From the NCBI GenBank assembly GCA_000004695.1, contig CM000151.3, positions 3,104,001-3,168,000 of the forward strand: a DNA stretch of 64,000 nucleotides, in the 5' to 3' direction. Position 1 is the first letter of the stretch; each line of letters starts with the position of its first letter. Made by a program: the position numbers and the translations under genes. The notes under the pieces were generated by a model. It was not told where the DNA came from. It worked only from the letters and a program-made list of their open reading frames with translations, and made no database searches. Positions 3,767 through 56,613 of the stretch are shown here, in pieces. This stretch comes from Dictyostelium discoideum. Its lineage: Eukaryota.

Positions 3767-5224
3767 TTTAATTATTATTGATTAAATTAAAAAATAATTA
3801 TTGATTTATTATTTATTTTATTTTAAATAATATTATTTAGACAAACTTTTTACCATTATTAGATTTATTTAATGGTGAATCACAAAAACAAATTAGTAGA
3901 TCAACATTAGAAGCATTATCAACATCAAAAGTTATGACATCAGATCCAATATTGATAAATACATTCCTTACCTATGGTAAAGCATTACATGATTCATTGA
4001 ATAGTCTTAGTTTCCAAGATGAAGTTAGACAAGTCACTCAATTGGTTGTAAATTGTATCAATAAGATTGATTTCGGAAGAGATGTTGAAAAACAGTTAAA
4101 CTTTTATGTAGAGTGTAGACAAACCTTTATCAATTTCGATGGTGTAAAGAATAGATTGGTCTATGGTGTTTGTGAAATTTGTGAGAAAACTTTAAATTTG
4201 GTAAAAGGTAAACATACTCCAAAGACTACCTCTTTTATTCGTGCTTGTGTTGCCTATTGCTTCATTACAATTCCATCAATTGATGATATCTTTTTAAAGA
4301 TGAATCTTTATTTAGTCTCTTCATCTGTGGCTTTACAAAATCAAGCACTCTCTCAAGCCGATGCTTTATTAAAGGCTGCCATCACTTTTATTCAAGAAAT
4401 CCCTCCAATCTTGGAGTTTAAACAAGTTAAATCAACTGAAGATTGGACAATCTCTTATGTCTCTGATTTTATCTCACTTTTAGTTGTAACTCCTGGTCAT
4501 CCTGAAAGTGGTCCTTTCTATTTAGTAAAGGCTCTTTATAAAGTCATTAAAGAATATCAATGGGAATCAAGTTCAACTGCTAAATCAAAATTATTTATTC
4601 AATTATTATTACTTTGTTCTTCTTGGTAAGTTATTAAAAATTATTATTATTAAATTATAGTGAAAAAAATTTTTTTAATTATTAATTTTATTATTATATA
4701 TTTATTTTTTTTTTTAAAAAAAAAAAGGGCACAAACTTCATTACCATATCATATTGAAAAAGTTGAATCAAATGATCAATTATTTACAGAAGATCCAGAG
4801 TTTAATACAGAATTAACAGAATTTTATAATTCATTAATTAAAGAAATTTTATATGATTTAAATCTTTTGAAAGATGAACCAGATAATTTAGTAAGGTATT
4901 TTATTTTTTTTTTTTTTTTCATTTTTTATTTATTTATGTTATTTAATATTAACATTTATTAAAAAAAAAAAAAAAAATATATTATAGACACAGAAAAAAG
5001 TTGGTATCATTTGTATTGATTTAATAAATGCATTATTAAATGTTGGTGAATTAAATAGTAAGACAGCATCATTAATTTTCAATTTATATAATATGGCAAA
5101 GAAAATTATACCATCAACCTGTTTCAATGAAATTACATATTTAAAGAATACTCTTGCTTTTATTGGAACTCTTGAATCTAAAATGGGTCAGGATATTTTT
5201 AATAAACTTTCACAACAACAATAA
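2137..5224 (+). CDS. Six-exon gene encoding a VPS35-family alpha-solenoid protein (retromer VPS35-like, possibly a VPS35L/retriever-type subunit). Exons 2137..2481, 2556..3470, 3556..3699, 3841..4625, 4728..4890, 4988..5224.
   Basis: Consecutive ORF-track segments join in frame through GTATGT/GTAAGT...TAG introns of 74-130 nt. Phases are consistent: exon 4 ends TG and exon 5 supplies G, giving W. The motif ELLPRLFVEISILKCY resembles the VPS35 PRLYL motif. This is a long helical-repeat protein. The first in-frame ATG is at 2137, but the frame is open back to 1822, so the 5' end may lie upstream. Confidence 0.55.
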
Positions 5225-5991
5225 GAAATAATAAAAAAAAAAAAAAAAAAAAAAAAAAACTTTTAATAAAATATAATAAAAAAAGATTTTAAATTGTATT
5301 ACCCTAAATATGAATAAAATATTATTCCAAAAGTGATTATTTTAAATATTAATAGACCAACTTAAAAAAAAAAAAAAAAAAAAATATAAAAAACAATTTG
5401 TAATTAAAGTTTTTTTTTTTTTATTTTTTTATTTTTTTAAGTTTATAGTTTAAAATAACAAATCAAATTTTATTTTAATACAAATCTTACCTTAATTTCA
5501 GCCAGTTTATCTTTTTGAGATATTTTAAAGTTTTTGGTTTGGGAAGAAACTTTTTATTTTCCAAAATGTAACTATTTTTTTTTTTTTTAGGATTTAAAAT
5601 AATTTGGTTTTTGTGTTGAAAAAAAAAAAAAAAAAAAAAAAAATTATTAAAATTTAAGTTTTTTTTTCTTAAAAAATTAAGTTGTGGGTTAAAAAAACAA
5701 TTAAAATATTGTTATTTTTTAGGTATTTTTATATTAATTATGTTTAAAAATACCCCCTAAGGGACATAGTACCAGTTTGAAGTTTTAAGTTATTACATTT
5801 TAAGAAACCAACTATTTATTAATTAATTTTTTTAATTTTTTTTTTAATTTTTTTTTTTTTTTTATAAATAATTAAAAAGTTTTAAAAAAAAAAAAAAAAA
5901 AAAATATTATCAAAATATTCAAAAATAATAATTAACAATTAAAAAACTGGATTTTATAATACACATATATCACTAGAAATTTTTAAATATA

Positions 5992-6693
5992 ATGACAGAA
6001 GTTACTTACCAAATTCAAGACCAAATAAAACAATTTAACAATTTTAATCCCATTCAAAAAACAAATTATAAATATCAATATAATAGTGATAATGAAAATT
6101 CTTCTTTGGTTTATTTAATTAAAAATCCCAAACAAAACAATTTTAAAAATTATAATAATAAAATATGTAATTATAAAAGAAGTTTATCTTCTTCATCATT
6201 CCAAGGAAACGAAGAAAAAGAAACTAGAAAGAAAAATAAGGCTCAATTTTATGAAAATGATTTTGAAAATGGATTTGGAAATATTTCATCTTGGTTGAAT
6301 AATTCAATACCATATAAATGTGAAGATTGTAATGGAAATAATGAACCACCTCATCAAAAATTGAAATCTCAGGATATTCCATTATTCACTTTCTTTGAAC
6401 CACTTACTTTTATTCATGAAATTAATAAGGTTATTCATATTGAATTAGAGATAGCAGGGGTCGATAAAGATGATGTTAAAGTTGATCTCACTAACAATAT
6501 TCTTACAATTGTAGCAAAGAAGAAATCAGTTTATCCATTATTTCAAAATATGTGTGAATTTAAAAGACATGAAAAATCAATTGGTGTTTACAAAAGAGTA
6601 TTGGAATTTAATTCAAATACTGTTGACAAAGATACAATTAAAGCAAGATATGTTAATGGTATTTTATTAATTACAGTCAACAAATTTCTGTAA
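5992..6693 (+). CDS. Small heat-shock protein (HSP20/alpha-crystallin domain), intronless.
   Basis: The C-terminal domain EPLTFIHEINKVIHIELEIAGVDKDDVKVDLTNNILTIVAKK...GILLITV matches the alpha-crystallin fold signature. It is a complete ATG..TAA ORF of 233 aa. Confidence 0.7.
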   Translation: MTEVTYQIQDQIKQFNNFNPIQKTNYKYQYNSDNENSSLVYLIKNPKQNNFKNYNNKICNYKRSLSSSSFQGNEEKETRKKNKAQFYENDFENGFGNISSWLNNSIPYKCEDCNGNNEPPHQKLKSQDIPLFTFFEPLTFIHEINKVIHIELEIAGVDKDDVKVDLTNNILTIVAKKKSVYPLFQNMCEFKRHEKSIGVYKRVLEFNSNTVDKDTIKARYVNGILLITVNKFL

Positions 6694-7478
6694 AAAAAGA
6701 AATTTAAAAGTAATGAATATAATAGTATTAGTATATTATTATATTTTAATAAATGTAATAATATTAGAATATTATTATATTTTAATAAATATTTATTATT
6801 CAAAAATAGATTATAGAAATTTACCAATTTTGAATTTAATTATTTGGTTTTTATAATTATTATTATTATTAAAAAATGATTTAATTATAATAAAATAAAT
6901 ATTAATAATTAATATTTTTATAAAAAAAAACAATATTAAGATTTGAAAAGATTTATAATTGTTTTTCTCATTTTTAAAAAAATTTCAAAGTTCTGGTTAT
7001 TGAAATTTAGACTCACCAAAAGCATATATGGCATGTTTAATGTTGTATGGTGTTGATCATTTTATTAATACCGGCACATTGGATTACTGTTTTGGGCCAG
7101 AGCTAGAGAGCCAGAAATTGATTCAAAATGATTTTTATCAAAGAAATTACCAAATATAACTCGAAAAAAATAAATGTATAATAATATTTAATTTTTTAAT
7201 ATAAATAAATCTATATCCTTATTGGTGTGTTTTTATTAAATTAAAATAAAAAATATTGTATTTTATTTAAAAAAATTAAATATCTTCTTCCATACCAAAA
7301 AATAAAAATAGTAAATCTCAAACAATATTTTTTTAAAATTTTTTACCTTTTTTCAAAGATAATATTTATTTATTTTATATTTTATTTTATTTTATATTTT
7401 ATTTTATTTTATATTTTATTTTATTTTATTTTATTTTATTTTATATTATTTTATTTTTTGGAAATTTAATAAAAAGCT

Positions 7479-8293
7479 TTATAACATATCAGAATCATCT
7501 TTACCAAATCTGGTGATCATTGAATCGATCATACCTTGAGTTGAGTCATCAAAATCTTGAAGACAAACTTTACCATTTGAATTGAGATATGTATGAGCTT
7601 GAACAAATACCTTTCTTGGTTTCTTTTTAGCCAAAACTATATCTCTAATGGCGAGGAATTCTTCATTGACATGAGTATATTCATCGAATAATTTGATTGA
7701 GGCATCAATATTTGCAGTTGCTTTGTAAACCATTAATCTATTGAGGAAATCACCAACAGCTTTAACACCAATACCTCTAATTTTACTTTTATCAAGTTTG
7801 ACAATTACATCGTCGGCAGTCTTGTCTAAAGTGACAATACCAGAACGTAAGAATGTTGTTAAAATACAATATCTGGCTTGCATATGAGCTTGTCTCCATT
7901 TACCTGGTGCACCTTCACTTGGTGGACTATAAAATTCCAATGCACAGACACCAGCACGTGCCATAATCAACCAATTGACATAGTAGACATCTTCAGCTTT
8001 CTTTGGATCTGTGAAACCAAAGAGTTCAAGAATCTTTTCATCTGGTGATAAATAGATACCACAACATTCTGCTCTACATTCTTCCATTGGTGAACCCAAT
8101 GATTTGAAAACACTGTCATAAGTTTCACCAAATTTATATACTTCAGTCTTTGGGTCAATTGGTTTGTTTGTAAGTGGATTAATAACTTCACCAACTTTAA
8201 AGTTAACATTACCATTAGCATCTGTTGTGAAAAGTTTACCTGAACCATGACCATATAACTAAATAAATAAAAAATAATAATTAATACTTTATA

Positions 8294-15856: not shown

Positions 15857-33068
<17,212 letters not shown>

Positions 33069-43333: not shown

Positions 43334-43872
43334 TTAATAATTTGGTTTATTTAAATAAAAATTTGAATTAACAATTAATTGATCATTACAAGTTGAACAT
43401 GATAATTGAATTTCATGATTATCAATGTTGGTTAATGATTGTAGTGATAATTTTAATTTTGAATAATATAAACCTGTACATTTCTTTTGATGGCAATAAA
43501 ATTTTGAAATCCAATTATCTAATGAATCCTCTAATTTACCAGTTGGATCAATATCTGTTGAATTACATCTTGGACATTGACAATGAAAGTAGTAACCAAA
43601 TTTCAAATAATCTCTACGTCTTTTAGTTGATTTATCTAATGCCAAATAAGAGATATTAATTTGGTCACCTTTTTTAATTGGAAATAATGATTTAAATGTC
43701 ATATCACTACCATCTCTAACCGATTCACAATTTGGTATACATGAATGATTAAAATAACTACTACTTGGTGATACTGCCATACCAATACATTTATCATTCT
43801 TTGTCCAAATTCCAAATTGATTACATCTAACTTTTTGAATTAATGGTCTAATTAATTTAATTAATTCTTCAA

Positions 43873-43962
<90 letters not shown>

Positions 43963-44575
43963 CATTACTATTATTATTTATTGTTAATTTTAATATATTT
44001 ATAATATATTCAATAATATTATCAATATATTCTTTTGCTACACTATTTGTTTCTTCATTTATATCATTTTCTACTAAATCTAATACACCATCCAATGTAT
44101 CTTTTATAAAATCTTCTTCATCATCTTGTTGATTATTTATTATTATTGATGAATTGAATTTATTATTTAATAATTTATCTTGATAATATCTTGAGAGTAA
44201 ACCAAGTATTATTCTGATTTCAGAGTATGAATCGAAATCGAGTTTTGAATTTTGAATTAATTTTGGTGATTTTATATTGTTGAAAAATGCACATTCATAA
44301 TGTTGATGTTTTGCTTGATTATCTTGTTTACATTTTTCACTACAATACCAAACTTCATTACATCCAAAACATCTTGGTACTTGTTGAGGTGATGGTGATT
44401 TAATTAACTTTATACAATTGTAACAACTATTCTTTTTAAAATCTTCACATGTAACTGCAAAATATGATTTACATTTTAATATACTCTCTCCAATGTCAAT
44501 ATCTCTATTTGCTATAATATACCTTCCCTCTAACTCTGAATTCGATAATTTTAATCCATCAAAAGATTTAAACAT
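43334..44575 (-). CDS. SMYD-type SET+MYND methyltransferase, paralog 2, intronless, 413 aa. It contains a poly-Asn insertion.
   Basis: It is about 70% identical to paralog 1 over alignable regions (MFKSFDGLKLSNSELEGRYIIANRDIDIGESILKCKSYFAVT...NHSCIPNC...YLKFGYYFHCQCPRC). The (ATT)n run at 43869-43960 encodes a 40-residue poly-N loop that is absent from paralog 1. Confidence 0.8.
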
Positions 44576-45983: not shown

Positions 45984-46162
45984 TGAAAAAAACCAAAACC
46001 AAAAAAATAAAAAAAACAAACAATAACCAAATAATAATAATTTATATATTTTATATATAAATTTAAAATAAAAAAAATAGATTTACAATTTAAAAATTAA
46101 AATATTACTATAGCAATAATAGTAATAATTTAAAAAATATGAATAATAATATTAATAGTACT

Positions 46163-46252
<90 letters not shown>

Positions 46253-46383
46253 TCCAATAAAGACAATTATAATGGATATAAAACACCCAAGATCCAAAAC
46301 CAAATAGTAAACCCTCAAAGTATCAACCAATAAAAACACAAACTCAATTTAGTAAACCCGATATTGCCAAAAATATTGGAGAA

Positions 46384-46521
46384 TTGGTTGAATATTTAGA
46401 TAAAAAGAAACAATATATTGAAGGAAAAGCATCAACAACACCTTTATCAACTTCACCAACATTAAATTCAAAATCATCATTTAATAATAATAATAATAAT
46501 AATAATAACAATAATAATAAT

Positions 46522-46590
<69 letters not shown>

Positions 46591-47010
46591 TTTTCAGAAG
46601 ATGATGAATATTATAGTGATGATAATCAAAATAATCAAAATAATCAAAATAATAATAATTGTGAAGATTCAGAATTAAATATTGAAGAATATTCAAATAT
46701 ATTTAAAAAATTAAAACAAGAGAATAGTTTTAATGAAATTATAAATTTTACAGAGAGGGAAATTTTGGTATTATGTGAAGTTTGTAAACATTATTTTAGT
46801 GATTTCAAAAAGAATAAATTCAATAATTTCGATAAATTATTATTATATTTAGCATTTAGTAAAGCAGGATCAAGCACAACACACATTAGTAAAATGTTTA
46901 ACGTTACTCAAGTTACAATTAGTCGGGTTGTACAAAAGATACGTATTGTAATTGATCAACTTTCAAAAAGAGATTTACCATTTGATATATTTAGACCATC
47001 AGTTAATGGT

Positions 47011-47052
<42 letters not shown>

Positions 47053-47061
47053 TCAAATAAT

Positions 47062-47103
<42 letters not shown>

Positions 47104-48507
47104 CAAAATAATTTTAAAATTCAAAAGAATCCATATCATATTGGTTTAATAGTTGATTGTATCACTATTAAAACTACAATAGCAGATTCAAAGAAAAAGG
47201 AATACTTTGATCCAATTAATAACATATATGGCATTAAATTTATGGTTGCAGTTCAATTCAGTTCACCACATTATTCAATTTTTGTTTCTGCACCTTATCT
47301 TGGTTCAACACCTGATCTAACCATATTTAATCAACAAAAACATAATCTATTAAACTATCTTCAAAAACAAGATACACCTTCAGAAATTGATCAAACTGGT
47401 AAATTTAAATCATGGGCAATTTTAACTTTATTCGATCCTCAAACAGGTTCCTCATTACCTTATTCAAATTATTATAAAAATGTTAATGGTATGGTTCAAA
47501 TAGTTAATCAAAATCAAAATCAAAATAATCAAAATAATCAAAATAATCAAAATAGTCAAAATAATCAAAATAATAACAATCAAAGTAATTATTGTAATAA
47601 TAATAGTTTACCATCTAGTGCAACAACTACACCACCATTAAATTCACAAAATTATAATAATAGTAATAGTAGTAGTAGTAGTAATATACAGGAATATACA
47701 ATGACGACGACCATGATGACGGCAACGACGGCCACAATGACAACTACTACAACTACAAATACAAATTCAAAGTGTATTGATGAAATGAGAATAATAAATA
47801 TAAATGATAATTTAAAAGAATTTGAATCACATAGGATGACAATTGATAAATATTTTGGTAGATTATATGGGTTATGGGGAATTACTGGTAATTATCGGTT
47901 GGATCAACGTTTCATTGAAATCGATTTTAAAAATTTACAATGGTTAACAAATGTTCATATTCAAAAGAAAGATTTAGATAATGACGATTTAACTTTTTTT
48001 TATCAATTTAAAAAGAATTTATTTGAATCTGATAAAAGAATTACAAAAAGTAGAAAAAAAGATAAAAAAGTAACAAGTCCACAACAAAGAAGACAATCAA
48101 ATAGAAATCATGATATTAATAATAATAATAATAATAATAATAAAAATAATATTAATATTAATATCAATAATAATAATAACAATAATAATAGCAATAATAA
48201 TAATAGCAATAATAATAATAATAGCAATAATAATAGTAATAATAATAATAATAATGGAAATAGTGATGGAAATAATAATAGTGATAACAGTAAATATAAT
48301 ATTAATAATATTATTAATAAAAACAACATCAATAATAATAATAATAATAACATATCTTCATCTACAACCACCTCAACTTCAACTACATTTCAAAATCATT
48401 CATTTGATGATGAAGAGTATGAAGATGAATCATATGATACCTCTGAATATGACGATGGTGAATTAATTTTTGATGGAGATGATGAAGATAATAATTTTAA
48501 TAATAAT

Positions 48508-48541
<34 letters not shown>

Positions 48542-48612
48542 TAGAAACAAATAGAAATAAAAATGATGATCCTCGTGAAGATACTGGTCCATTTAAAAAA
48601 AGAAAATTTTAG
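46384..48612 (+). CDS. Harbinger/PIF-type DDE transposase-derived protein: N-terminal HTH plus a DDE_Tnp_4-like nuclease core, heavily interspersed with poly-Asn. The true start lies upstream; the frame is open from 46282 with no ATG.
   Basis: HTH-like REILVLCEVCKHYF...LLLYLAFSKAGSSTTHISKMFNVTQVTISRVVQKIRIV. Core blocks are HIGLIVDCITIKT (first Asp), YFDPINNIYGIKFMVAVQ...APYLGSTPDLTIF (second Asp) and HRMTIDKYFGRLYGLWGI (the Harbinger R..VE..FG.LK..W block, with Asp in place of Glu). Confidence 0.6.
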
Positions 48613-48619
48613 TGCAAAA

Positions 48620-48982
48620 TTTAAATTAAAACAAATAAAGAAAATGTTTATTTTTTTCCTTTTTTTTTTTTTATAATTTTAATATAATCAGTTTTTTTTT
48701 TTTTAATTATTTAGATATTTTTTTTATATGTTTATATATATACATTTTTTTTAAAAAAAAAAAAGTTGTAATTTATTCTATTCAAACCAAAACATTCTTT
48801 AATTGGTATGCTAATTGTAACATTTGATCGGTTGCTGAATTCCAACATTTTCCATCCATCAAATACACCTTTAATTCCTCTGGATCATCCTAAAATTTTA
48901 GGTTAAATTTTAAATCAAACAAACAAAGAAAATGTTTATTTATTTTTTTTATAAATGTAATTAATTAATTTTAATTTATACT

Positions 48983-49041
<59 letters not shown>

Positions 49042-49250
49042 CAATTAAATAATTCAAATATTCATTTTTTCATGTAAGTATATTTTCTTTAAAAAAAAAA
49101 TTTGTTGTAGTTTATTCTCCTCAACCCAAAAACATTCTTGATACTGCACGTTTTACTAATTGTTCCGTTTGGTTGGTTGCTGAACTCCAATATTTTCCCT
49201 TCCATCAAATCAACTGTAAATATTTTTGATGATTCTAAAATTATAAAAAA
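48620..49250. repeat. Diverged tandem duplication of about 300 bp (two copies, about 80% identical), immediately 3' of the Harbinger-like gene.
   Basis: Copy A is about 48630-48900 and copy B about 48910-49235. Shared blocks are caaa(c/t)aaagaaaatgtttattt...(T)n...caaaacattcttt(a/g)at...ggttgctgaa(t/c)tccaa(c/t)attttcc(a/c)tccatcaaat. Confidence 0.6.
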
Positions 49251-50180: not shown

Positions 50181-50441
50181 ATGTCATCAAGAGATAAACA
50201 AGATAGTAGAAAGAAAGAATTTAAAAAATCACTCGATAGTGAAACAGCAAGAAGAAAGAGAGAAGAAAACTCAATTGGTATTAGAAAAAATGCTAGAGAA
50301 GAGTTAATGTTAAAGAGACGTGGTATCGTTCAACCAAATCCTTCAACTTCTTATCAAATTATCGTTCCACCAGAAGTTCAAGAACAATTCCAAAAATATG
50401 AAAATGAAACTATGGAAAATAAGGTAAATCATAATAGAATC

Positions 50442-53832: not shown

Positions 53833-54892
53833 ATGAAATTAAATTATAATTTTTATTTTTTAATAATTTTATTAATATTTTTAATAATTAATAAAAATCA
53901 AAGTCAAATTGTTAAAGGACCAAAAATTTGGTCAAAACAAATTATAGATACAACATTTATGTTAAATCAAGGTATAAATTTCACAGTTAATAATATTACT
54001 AATGATTCAAATAAAATGTATCAAAGATATGATTGGTCATTTATGAGATTTTTCATACATAATAATAAAAGCAAATTATTAATGTCTACAGATTATCATC
54101 CAAGAGTTGACGAATTCACTACAATAAAAATACCAAATACTAATTTCATGGTTCAAAATGAGCATTATACAGTTTGGGCAGAATTCCCAGGTTTAAAAAA
54201 TATTTCAACATTTACAAGTGTTAGAGAGAATCAAACATTTCCATGCACATTTAATAATAGTATTGGTGTAATGGAAACTCTAACAAATTATACAGATTGT
54301 AAAAATAATACAAGTGGAAATTATACAAAAGAAGTTATAGTGAATACTGAAACTTTTAAATTGTATCCAATAATTTTACCACCAAAACATATATTTTCAA
54401 ATTTAACTCAATCATTTGTAAATTATTTTACAATTATTGTTCAATTAGAGAATGGTAAAATTGTTGATGCTGTTTGGGATGGTGATAGAATTCCTGGTAT
54501 GTGTGAAAAACAGTGTGATCAATGTATTGATTCTCAATGTGGTGTAAAAGTTAAGGATATGAAATGTAATGAATTAAGAGATAATGATAAATTATCAAAT
54601 TCAACAATAATTAATGGTACAACAACAACAACAACAACTACTACTGGCACATCAACAACTACACCATCTTCTACTCCGATTTTAATTAGAGATGGAATAC
54701 CAATTAATGGTTGTCAAGTTAAATCTTTTATTGCTTGGGCTGGTGTAGATAGGTTGGGTAAACCTTGCCAATCAATTAATAAAATACCTTCAAAATTTCA
54801 AGAATATTCTGCAACTTCAATAAAGAAAATTGGTACTGGTTTATTAACTGATTTCTTATATCGTGTTAATGACCAAAATAATCCAAATACTC

Positions 54893-54897
<5 letters not shown>
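53833..54897 (+). CDS. Secreted Cys-containing protein, family member B (354 aa), intronless paralog of the 34626 gene.
   Basis: Signal peptide MKLNYNFYFLIILLIFLIINKNQSQ. It shares all the conserved blocks listed for member A, plus a Thr-rich linker (TTTTTTTTTGTSTTTPSSTP). Confidence 0.75.
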
Positions 54898-55374: not shown

Positions 55375-56613
55375 ATGAAAATTTTAAAATCATTAATTAT
55401 TGCATTTTCAATTGTTGGTGCAGTATTATCAAGTAATCAATGTAATGAAGATTATGAATGTGGTGTTGGATATCCATATGCAGCATGTAATGGTGGTTTA
55501 AATGTTTATCCAGGTATTAGTATGGATGGGAATGATAATTTAATTATTGCAGGTAAATTTAATAGTTCACAAGGTGGTCCATTTGGTACACCAAAAATGT
55601 TTAATATTCCAACTTCAGGTAATGGAAGTAATGAAATTTCTCAAAGAATTAATATCAATGGTGAAATTGAAAGTGGTGCAGGATCATTCAAACTTTATTC
55701 ATTCTATGATTATTTACCCCAATCAAATTATTATTATGTATTAATGAATCAAGGTGGATCAGCACCAATTTTCTCACTTATAGATGCAAATAATGGTGGT
55801 GATAAAGTTAAATATGTTTTCAATATTTTCAATACACCATTCGTTCCAATTTTTGATGATATTGAAAAATCAATGATCTATGGTGCTTATGGTATTTATA
55901 AATTAAATAAATTACCAACACAAAGAAGTGATGCTCAAGATGCAACATTAATTTATCAATCACAAATTGTTAATGGTTTAGCAAAAGATGGTAATGATTT
56001 ATATATGTCAACTTATGATGGTAAATTCTTAAAAGGTAAAGCTGATTGTTCAAATTGTACAAAAGATCAATTGATTGAAATTGGTAGTGATACTGATGCA
56101 AGTCATTTAACTGATTTCTTAGTCGAGGGTGATTTAATTGTATTCTCTCATTCAAATGGTATAACTGCTTATTCAAAATCTGCTAACTCTAATCAAGCCA
56201 TTAAATTAATCACTGGTGAAAATGTAATTTCAATGGTTTCAAAGGGTGGTGTCATTTATTATACAACTAAAGATGGTATTGTTAAATCAATTGGTATTGA
56301 TGGTAAAAATGGTAAAACTATTTATACACCAACTTCCAATCATCAATGTCAAGCTGCTGTTGGTTTCCAATCAATTGATGGTGTTTGTAAAGGTAAAACC
56401 TTATGGTATAATGGTATTCCAACTTGTACTCCATTAGGTGAAGGTGGTATCCCTGCTCAATGTTTCACAAGTGTTGATTGTGGTCCAACTCCATATTTCA
56501 CTTGTAATGGTACTTGTGGATGTGTTAATAATTTCAGTGGTTTAGATTGTACTCATTGTGATGGTAATGTTGAATGGTTAAATGGTATCCCATTATGTCA
56601 AATTCCACAATAA
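55375..56613 (+). CDS. Secreted protein (412 aa) with a C-terminal laminin-type EGF-like Cys module. Function unknown.
   Basis: Signal peptide MKILKSLIIAFSIVGAVLS. The C-terminal Cys pattern is CQAAVGFQSIDGVCKGK...CTPLGEGGIPAQCFTSVDCGPTPYFTCNGTCGCVNNFSGLDCTHCDGN. It is a complete ATG..TAA ORF. Confidence 0.6.
   Translation: MKILKSLIIAFSIVGAVLSSNQCNEDYECGVGYPYAACNGGLNVYPGISMDGNDNLIIAGKFNSSQGGPFGTPKMFNIPTSGNGSNEISQRININGEIESGAGSFKLYSFYDYLPQSNYYYVLMNQGGSAPIFSLIDANNGGDKVKYVFNIFNTPFVPIFDDIEKSMIYGAYGIYKLNKLPTQRSDAQDATLIYQSQIVNGLAKDGNDLYMSTYDGKFLKGKADCSNCTKDQLIEIGSDTDASHLTDFLVEGDLIVFSHSNGITAYSKSANSNQAIKLITGENVISMVSKGGVIYYTTKDGIVKSIGIDGKNGKTIYTPTSNHQCQAAVGFQSIDGVCKGKTLWYNGIPTCTPLGEGGIPAQCFTSVDCGPTPYFTCNGTCGCVNNFSGLDCTHCDGNVEWLNGIPLCQIPQ

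Follow-up and report, generated by a model that had tools for sequence, protein, structure and literature searches.

A transposase-derived gene of the PIF/Harbinger/IS5 group, probably domesticated, at a conserved locus of the Dictyostelium discoideum group

The stretch of DNA analysed here (the window) comprises 64,000 nucleotides of Dictyostelium discoideum (assembly GCA_000004695.1, contig CM000151.3, positions 3,104,001 to 3,168,000 of the forward strand; ~22% G+C), and our subject is a gene on its plus strand that is seen in the window as an open frame of 776 codons (46282-48612), closed by the TAG at 48610-48612. Its neighbours are a SET-domain gene on the minus strand (43334-44575) and, on the other side, an importin-alpha gene on the plus strand that starts at 50181; no other real open reading frame (ORF) was found between the end of the former at 44575 and the start of the latter at 50181. 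A sequence-only reading of this DNA had reported the frame, the motifs GLIVDCITIK, GSTPDLTIF and RMTIDKYFGRLYGLWGI within it, and long low-complexity inserts separating its conserved blocks; all of these were recovered, and that reading describes the locus correctly save for the word 'intact'. Asn makes up 27% of the frame, with N/Q-rich runs at 46492-46584, 47020-47109, 47512-47589 (continuing S/T-rich to ~47784), 48124-48249 and 48505-48537, and with a further low-complexity run at ~46166-46250 in the 5' part of the gene. No description of this gene was found in the literature. We consider it highly probable that it is a host gene, encoding 824 amino acids (aa) when its frame is whole, which derives from an IS5/PIF-Harbinger (PHIS, DDE_Tnp_4) transposase domesticated in an ancestor of the D. 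discoideum group. Its parts are listed below; 'five taxa' refers to D. discoideum, D. cf. discoideum, D. citrinum, D. dimigraforme and D. firmibasis, dN/dS is the ratio of non-synonymous to synonymous substitution rates, and pLDDT is the predicted local distance difference test score of the AlphaFold (AF2) model.

46139-46293, plus strand: 5' coding part, from the ATG at 46139 through an (AAT)n tract to ...NGYKTPKI; in another frame in the window, continuous with the main frame in a second D. discoideum assembly (L001, GCA_054883475.1) and six other assemblies.
46293-46294, plus strand: site of a one-nucleotide deletion, AAGAT-CCAAAA as against three bases in the other assemblies.
46274-46428, plus strand: Dictyostelium-specific N-terminal block (GYKTPKIPKPNSKPSKYQPIKTQTQFSKPDIAKNIGELVEYLDKKKQYIEGK), containing the deletion site; nearly invariant in the five taxa, dN/dS 0.02-0.09.
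46678-47001, plus strand: block A, the helical N-terminal DNA-binding region of helix-turn-helix (HTH) type that comes from the transposase; positions 8-139 of the family hidden Markov model (HMM), E 1e-14, and hhalign.
47020-47109, plus strand: poly-Asn linker from the DNA-binding region to the catalytic core; length varies by species, pLDDT below 50.
47113-47505, plus strand: block B, first half of the RNase H-like core; Pfam DDE_Tnp_4 positions 1-69, E 2e-4, with hhalign and conserved columns.
Within block B, plus strand: first catalytic Asp (D1) at 47155-47157; GSTPD at 47302-47316, with Pro at 47311-47313 for the family His; second catalytic Asp (D2) at 47434-47436.
47506-47784, plus strand: N/Q/S/T-rich insert in the loop that leads from D2 to the third catalytic position; pLDDT 28-50, length and sequence vary by species.
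47785-48096, plus strand: block C, second half of the core and C-terminal helices; alignment and hhalign, dN/dS 0.04-0.14.
Within block C, plus strand: RMTIDKYFGRL with Asp at 47845-47847 for the catalytic Glu; LTNVHI at 47944-47961; a terminal basic patch, KRITKSRKKDKK.
48124-48390, plus strand: C-terminal poly-Asn region, strongly variable in length across species and strains.
48391-48489, plus strand: conserved acidic block (QNHSFDDEEYEDESYDTSEYDDGELIFDGDDED), kept in all orthologues.
48589-48612, plus strand: C-terminal PFKKRKF followed by TAG; GPFKKRK(F/L) in all five taxa.

The frame as it stands in the window is not intact. It holds no ATG until residue ~205, and the frame of 64 codons that begins with the ATG at 46139 (MNNNINSTY(N)n...KTPKI) is in a different phase from the main frame. 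The window lacks one base between 46293 and 46294, at which site seven other Dictyostelium assemblies carry three bases (ATA, CTT or CTA), their junctions reading AAGATACC, AAGCTTCC or AAGCTACC, and are in frame. The assembly L001, which is 99-99.7% identical to the window over 20 kb, has one extra A at the junction (AAGATACC as against AAGAT-CC), and this single base is the only difference between the two coding sequences; with the base restored, an uninterrupted 824-aa ORF runs from the ATG at 46139 to the TAG ending at 48612, and its product is identical to that of L001. The start codon is thus cut off from the gene body by the deletion after 46293. A candidate intron at 46158-46291 (GT..AG) that would rescue the frame was rejected, since the seven other assemblies show a plain continuous ORF and the difference to L001 is a single base.

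None of the seven other assemblies shares the deletion, which is either an error in the reference or a null allele peculiar to the strain. That the sequenced strain (the AX4 reference) truly has a null or pseudogene allele is conceivable but rather doubtful: the sequence around the deletion is non-repetitive, so that an assembly error is less expected, the deletion leaves no in-frame ATG for the first ~205 residues, and a second strain assembly is also frame-broken, so disrupted alleles or errors recur; against this, the remaining coding sequence matches the intact L001 allele with no further lesions, the seven other assemblies are in frame, and an old Sanger-era reference of 78% A+T DNA can hold single-base errors. 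The second broken copy is that of D. discoideum GCA_054859355.1 (L013), in which an indel in the C-terminal (AAT)n tract, at ~4300-4320, creates a TAA; the copy is annotated as 747 aa, and the acidic block and KKRK motif persist downstream in another frame. This lesion could be a microsatellite assembly error or a real truncation.

In order to place the protein in a family, window positions 46678-48075 were used as a phmmer query against a library of 1.84 billion representatives, accepting matches with E of 1e-3 or better. This returned 139 matches (best E 4e-21) to proteins of ~400 aa, aligned in three collinear stretches that are the three non-repetitive blocks of the query, and all ten of the top matches scored above the Pfam DDE_Tnp_4 cut-off, some of them also matching HTH_Tnp_4 and DDE_Tnp_1. 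A profile of 40 family sequences was aligned by hhalign to the core freed of its repeats with a probability of 99.9% and E 2e-37 over 309 columns, and an HMM of the same 40 relatives picked out the window ORF (E 1e-48) and no other part of the window. The block order of an HTH region followed by DDE_Tnp_4, which had been read from the letters, is therefore borne out by the collinear phmmer and hhalign alignments, and the profile-profile comparison proposed with it as a check on the DDE fold gave a clear positive. The relatives themselves show weak matches to NCBIfam IS5 transposase models. Pfam run on the full ORF gave no DDE_Tnp_4 match, the low-complexity tracts masking it; with the tracts removed, DDE_Tnp_4 reached 21.5 bits against a cut-off of 24.8, over the first 69 profile positions only, and HTH_Tnp_4 an E of 0.1. 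A sequence search of the PDB returned no match.

The conserved blocks are modelled by AF2 with pLDDT above 90, and the fold of this model matches piggyBac and Tn5 transposases and retroviral integrases, so that an RNase H-like DDE (Asp-Asp-Glu transposase) fold is supported by the prediction. The notion that the transposase similarity is spurious and stems from low-complexity sequence could draw on the silent full-ORF Pfam search and on the de-repeated match that stays under the gathering score, but the matches are confined to the non-repetitive blocks, form three collinear stretches (best E 4e-21), reach E 2e-37 by hhalign and are joined by an independent fold match to DDE transposases; we regard it as practically out of consideration. 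At the family level the evidence is decisive and, judged by its profile matches, the gene is a homologue of the DDE_Tnp_4 (PIF/Harbinger/IS5, PHIS) transposases. Its nearest relatives are unnamed transposase-like proteins of protists and environmental samples, together with proteins of Balamuthia mandrillaris and Monocercomonoides exilis. Neighbour joining groups the Dictyostelium proteins into a single clade, set on a long stem and about equidistant from all of the transposase relatives.

The gene thus keeps both the N-terminal helical DNA-binding region and the RNase H-like core of a transposase. In block A the helices have pLDDT above 90, with weak Pfam matches to HTH_Tnp_4 and HTH_SB (HTH_Tnp_4 E 0.1-0.3). 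To these inherited parts Dictyostelium has added the N-terminal block, the acidic block, the C-terminal KKRK motif and the Asn-rich tracts; the N-terminal block at 46274-46428 has no conserved counterpart among the aligned transposase relatives. PFKKRKF resembles a classical basic nuclear localisation signal, a reading that we infer from its pattern. The Asn tracts fall in the inter-domain linker and in the loop from D2 to the third catalytic residue, both predicted to be disordered, and these long tracts are accommodated in two such segments of the fold without disturbing the conserved blocks. On the model they resemble the microsatellite expansions that are usual in Dictyostelium, tolerated here in disordered segments, more than functional modules. 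The loop that separates D2 from the catalytic Glu also holds a Ser-rich insert in a protein of Monocercomonoides exilis (P0010, residues ~180-270); it has been expanded there independently and seems generally permissive.

Orthologous regions were fetched using the neighbouring genes as anchors. The order SET gene, target gene, importin-alpha gene was found in D. cf. discoideum, D. citrinum, D. dimigraforme and D. firmibasis, as well as in three more assemblies of D. discoideum, so that the search for syntenic orthologues suggested by the sequence-only reading succeeded in four other taxa with the same two neighbours. The orthologues are intact single-exon ORFs of 829 aa (D. cf. discoideum), 824 aa (D. 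citrinum), 818 aa (D. dimigraforme) and 932 aa (D. firmibasis), and two further D. discoideum strains have copies of 887 aa and 747 aa, the latter as annotated over the indel described above. The non-repetitive blocks are almost invariant across the orthologues, whilst the Asn tracts all vary in length. For the three transposase-derived blocks (343 codons), Nei-Gojobori dN/dS was 0.06-0.10 at an interspecies dS of 0.29-0.79, with a synonymous excess that is significant at Fisher p 1e-35 to 3e-47.

No orthologue was found within 10 kb of importin-alpha in D. purpureum or Polysphondylium violaceum, where the gene order differs and synteny is broken. In these two species (L007 and L009) a Skp1 gene lies a few kb upstream of importin-alpha, with neither the SET gene nor the target nearby. 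The arrangement of SET gene, target and importin-alpha may have arisen by a rearrangement in the D. discoideum group alone.

The flanks of the gene were searched for terminal inverted repeats (TIRs) as 14-mers with up to two mismatches, filtered for complexity, with direct repeats as a control. None were found beyond chance (5 inverted as against 4 direct control matches), in agreement with the lack of TIRs noted earlier, and the long 'repeats' returned by a generic inverted-repeat finder were rejected as artefacts of A-runs and T-runs. The flanks are ~12% G+C, so any 3-bp A/T word recurs by chance and no ends are definable. Nor was a second copy found in the 64-kb window or in ~190 kb of related loci, including any fetched Dictyostelium locus. 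Could this still be an active, or recently active, autonomous PIF/Harbinger-type copy? The transposase architecture, the three acidic residues at the catalytic positions and the 776-codon open frame would suit one, but with no TIRs beyond chance and no further copy in the 64 kb or the ~190 kb of related loci, the same position held in five taxa at dS up to 0.79 and dN/dS below 0.1, large lineage-specific additions and several changes at family-invariant positions, we judge this very unlikely. The gene stands at one fixed position under strong purifying selection in at least four related species and has no transposon ends. Synteny, purifying selection and absence of ends are the standard marks of a domesticated transposase, and synteny, purifying selection and TIR loss have likewise been used for PIF-type domestication in insects (PMC9710019). 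Together with the DDE fold and the lack of extra copies in the loci searched, these results support the earlier proposal of a domesticated host gene as opposed to an active transposon.

A part of that proposal rested on the missing Myb partner. Canonical PIF/Harbinger elements make TWA target duplications and carry a Myb-like second gene; the Dictyostelium gene shares their DDE_Tnp_4 core, but neither TIRs nor a TWA duplication could be recognised around it, a Myb/SANT second gene is lacking, as confirmed by the absence of any real ORF in either flank, and its third catalytic residue is Asp. The missing partner, however, says nothing on domestication, because the parent family appears in Balamuthia mandrillaris as a one-gene element. 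There, a 411-aa family protein is encoded on two contigs, at loci that are 99.55% identical over exactly 1787 bp and have unrelated flanks. The element itself (5740-7524 in both L010 and L011) is 1785 bp long, holds one DDE_Tnp_4 gene and has room for one gene only. Its ends are inverted repeats of ~74 bp starting GAGTGAAAATGGG, which are also given as GAGTGAAAATGGGCATGATTG..., and they are bordered by 3-bp ANT target duplications, AAT...AAT in one copy and ATT...ATT in the other, which makes two insertions. The element was probably active recently, given the 99.55% identity of its copies. As annotated, the Balamuthia gene depends on a 17-nt 'intron' that joins two frames. A third Balamuthia copy (L014) is 66% identical, has no recognisable ends and is of no help on the target duplication.

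Within PHIS, target duplications of the 3-bp form ANT characterise the Pangu group and bacterial IS5 (PMC4482050). The ANT duplications of the Balamuthia relatives, together with the weak NCBIfam IS5 matches, suggest a Pangu/IS5-like parent family, a suggestion from two insertions and not a classification. Pangu elements are ~3.5 kb long with two ORFs (PMC4482050), unlike the 1.8-kb, one-ORF Balamuthia element, and for the Dictyostelium gene itself neither ends nor duplications could be recognised.

Several known cases invite comparison. With vertebrate HARBI1 the gene shares its standing as a DDE_Tnp_4-derived host gene, single-copy as far as the window and the related loci show, without ends, at one locus, under purifying selection and with acidic catalytic residues. 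The earlier label 'HARBI1-like' is apt as such an analogy, but nothing supports orthology: the Dictyostelium gene probably represents an independent event in Amoebozoa, on a separate long branch, and its nearest relatives form a clade of protist transposases. HARBI1 also keeps the canonical DDE and has a co-domesticated Myb-like partner, NAIF1, whereas the Dictyostelium gene has D-D-D plus motif losses, has no partner that we could see, and encodes a protein twice as long owing to its Asn-rich tracts and added blocks. The Arabidopsis proteins ALP1/ALP2 and HDP1 are likewise transposase-derived with altered catalytic motifs, and they serve as nuclear factors on chromatin or DNA instead of as transposases, a role that is proposed for the Dictyostelium protein; they are PIF/Harbinger-derived chromatin factors with identified partners, PRC2 and the Myb-like HDP2 (PMC4671723, PMC7282668, PMC5339849), whereas for Dictyostelium the function is a putative one. 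The DPLGs of Drosophila and other insects (PMC9710019) offer a parallel, in that PIF-type transposases were domesticated there repeatedly and in restricted lineages, as judged by the criteria applied here, but in insects the MADF gene of a two-gene element is often co-domesticated, whilst the parent family here appears to be one-gene.

The catalytic columns were compared with those of the 40 transposase relatives. The superfamily motif pattern D..K..D..D..R(3)E (PMC4122938) can be followed in the 824-aa numbering as D340, K367, D393, D433 and R566-x3-D570. D1 is kept in GLIVDCITIK, and D2 is kept after a 2-residue insertion (WAILTLFD vs WAILaD in the relatives); the invariant Tyr of the D-x-G-Y motif after D2 is lost, the His of GSxHD is replaced by Pro, and the N-terminal RGPxPK motif is deleted. 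The third position, in RMTIDKYFGRL, is Asp where Glu occurs in 40 of the 40 relatives, confirming what had been noticed in the R..VE..FG block, so that the gene has a D-D-D triad instead of the canonical D-D-E. Across the highly conserved columns of the family, 31 of 44 are kept and 13 changed. The derived states of the catalytic site are common to all five Dictyostelium taxa, and the changes therefore arose on the stem lineage and have been frozen since. Because of these stem-lineage changes (Glu to Asp, loss of the D-x-G-Y Tyr, the insertion at D2, His to Pro and the RGPxPK deletion) the protein is probably not a canonical cut-and-paste enzyme.

Since several family-invariant positions of the active site were remodelled on the stem lineage, we lean towards a putative DNA-binding or chromatin-adaptor role over a working nuclease. 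The protein would be nuclear and would bind DNA through its inherited HTH region and core, and by analogy with ALP1 and HDP1 in plants its most likely role may be that of a DNA-binding or chromatin-associated factor. A working nuclease that employs the D-D-D triad in host DNA processing, akin to what has been proposed for vertebrate HARBI1, is nevertheless a serious contender, if not the one we favour. All three carboxylate positions carry Asp in all five taxa, the surrounding fold is modelled with high confidence and the R(3)[D/E]..FGR motif is otherwise intact; set against this are the invariance of Glu in the relatives, the destroyed D-x-G-Y motif and displaced D2, the Pro in GSxHD, and the general experience that in other DDE enzymes a Glu/Asp swap at the third position usually cripples activity.

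The preferred reading, that of a domesticated gene whose product would act as a DNA-binding factor and not as a canonical enzyme, has to bear several considerations that count on the other side. Asp at the third position works in some other superfamilies (for example in the DDD triads of mariner and piggyBac), and with the D-D-D triad retained a non-catalytic protein is an inference of moderate strength only. At a dN/dS of ~0.08 most residues are conserved anyway, and retention of the triad is weakly informative either way. The orthologue is known only in closely related species, those of the D. discoideum group. A word-indexed protein search with the de-repeated core returned nothing, but in that collection the five Dictyostelium orthologues and the product of the window are absent, so negatives from protein searches are uninformative for dictyostelids, the orthologous proteins being missing although their genes are called in the assemblies and their neighbours are present. 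Lastly, the nuclear-signal and activation-domain readings come from sequence pattern alone.

As to the surroundings of the gene, ~300 bp directly 3' of its stop (48620-49250) are tandemly duplicated with 73% identity over 262 bp; both units start AAACAAA(T)AAAGAAAATGTTTATTT and contain short minus-strand open frames (..KMLEFSNRSNVTIS.. and ..KILEFSNQPNGTIS..). The two units map onto overlapping sequence in D. cf. discoideum, which points to a single copy in that taxon. Rfam gave nothing credible on either flank of the gene. Elsewhere in the window, one open frame of 4836 codons (18558-33068, plus strand) occupies nearly a quarter of the sequence. By exact protein match, 53833-54897 corresponds to DDB_G0273145/DDB_G0273599 and 55375-56613 to an EGF-like protein of D. 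discoideum AX4; the paired identifiers presumably place the window in a duplicated part of D. discoideum chromosome 2.

The frame-breaking deletion has a practical side, in that any annotation or experiment based on the reference needs that base checked, and if the deletion in AX4 is real the standard laboratory strain would be a natural knockout of the gene. A bolder and, on present evidence, unlikely idea is that a one-gene IS5/Pangu-like transposase was co-opted as a DNA-cutting, D-D-D nuclear enzyme for a programmed host DNA transaction, its assembly tuned by the variable, Asn-rich, prion-like tracts. If it were true, the transaction might be the processing of extrachromosomal ribosomal DNA or the control of other mobile elements, and the gene would then be the first functional case of a domesticated PHIS transposase to be described from Amoebozoa. 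Our literature search found no domesticated PIF/Harbinger-type case for Dictyostelium or other Amoebozoa. As a probable domesticated host gene, the locus extends a process known from vertebrates, insects and plants to a new supergroup, and does so in a tractable model organism in which knockouts and localisation are easy. It also offers a clean test of whether a transposase derivative with a Glu to Asp change and losses in the neighbouring motifs still cuts DNA.

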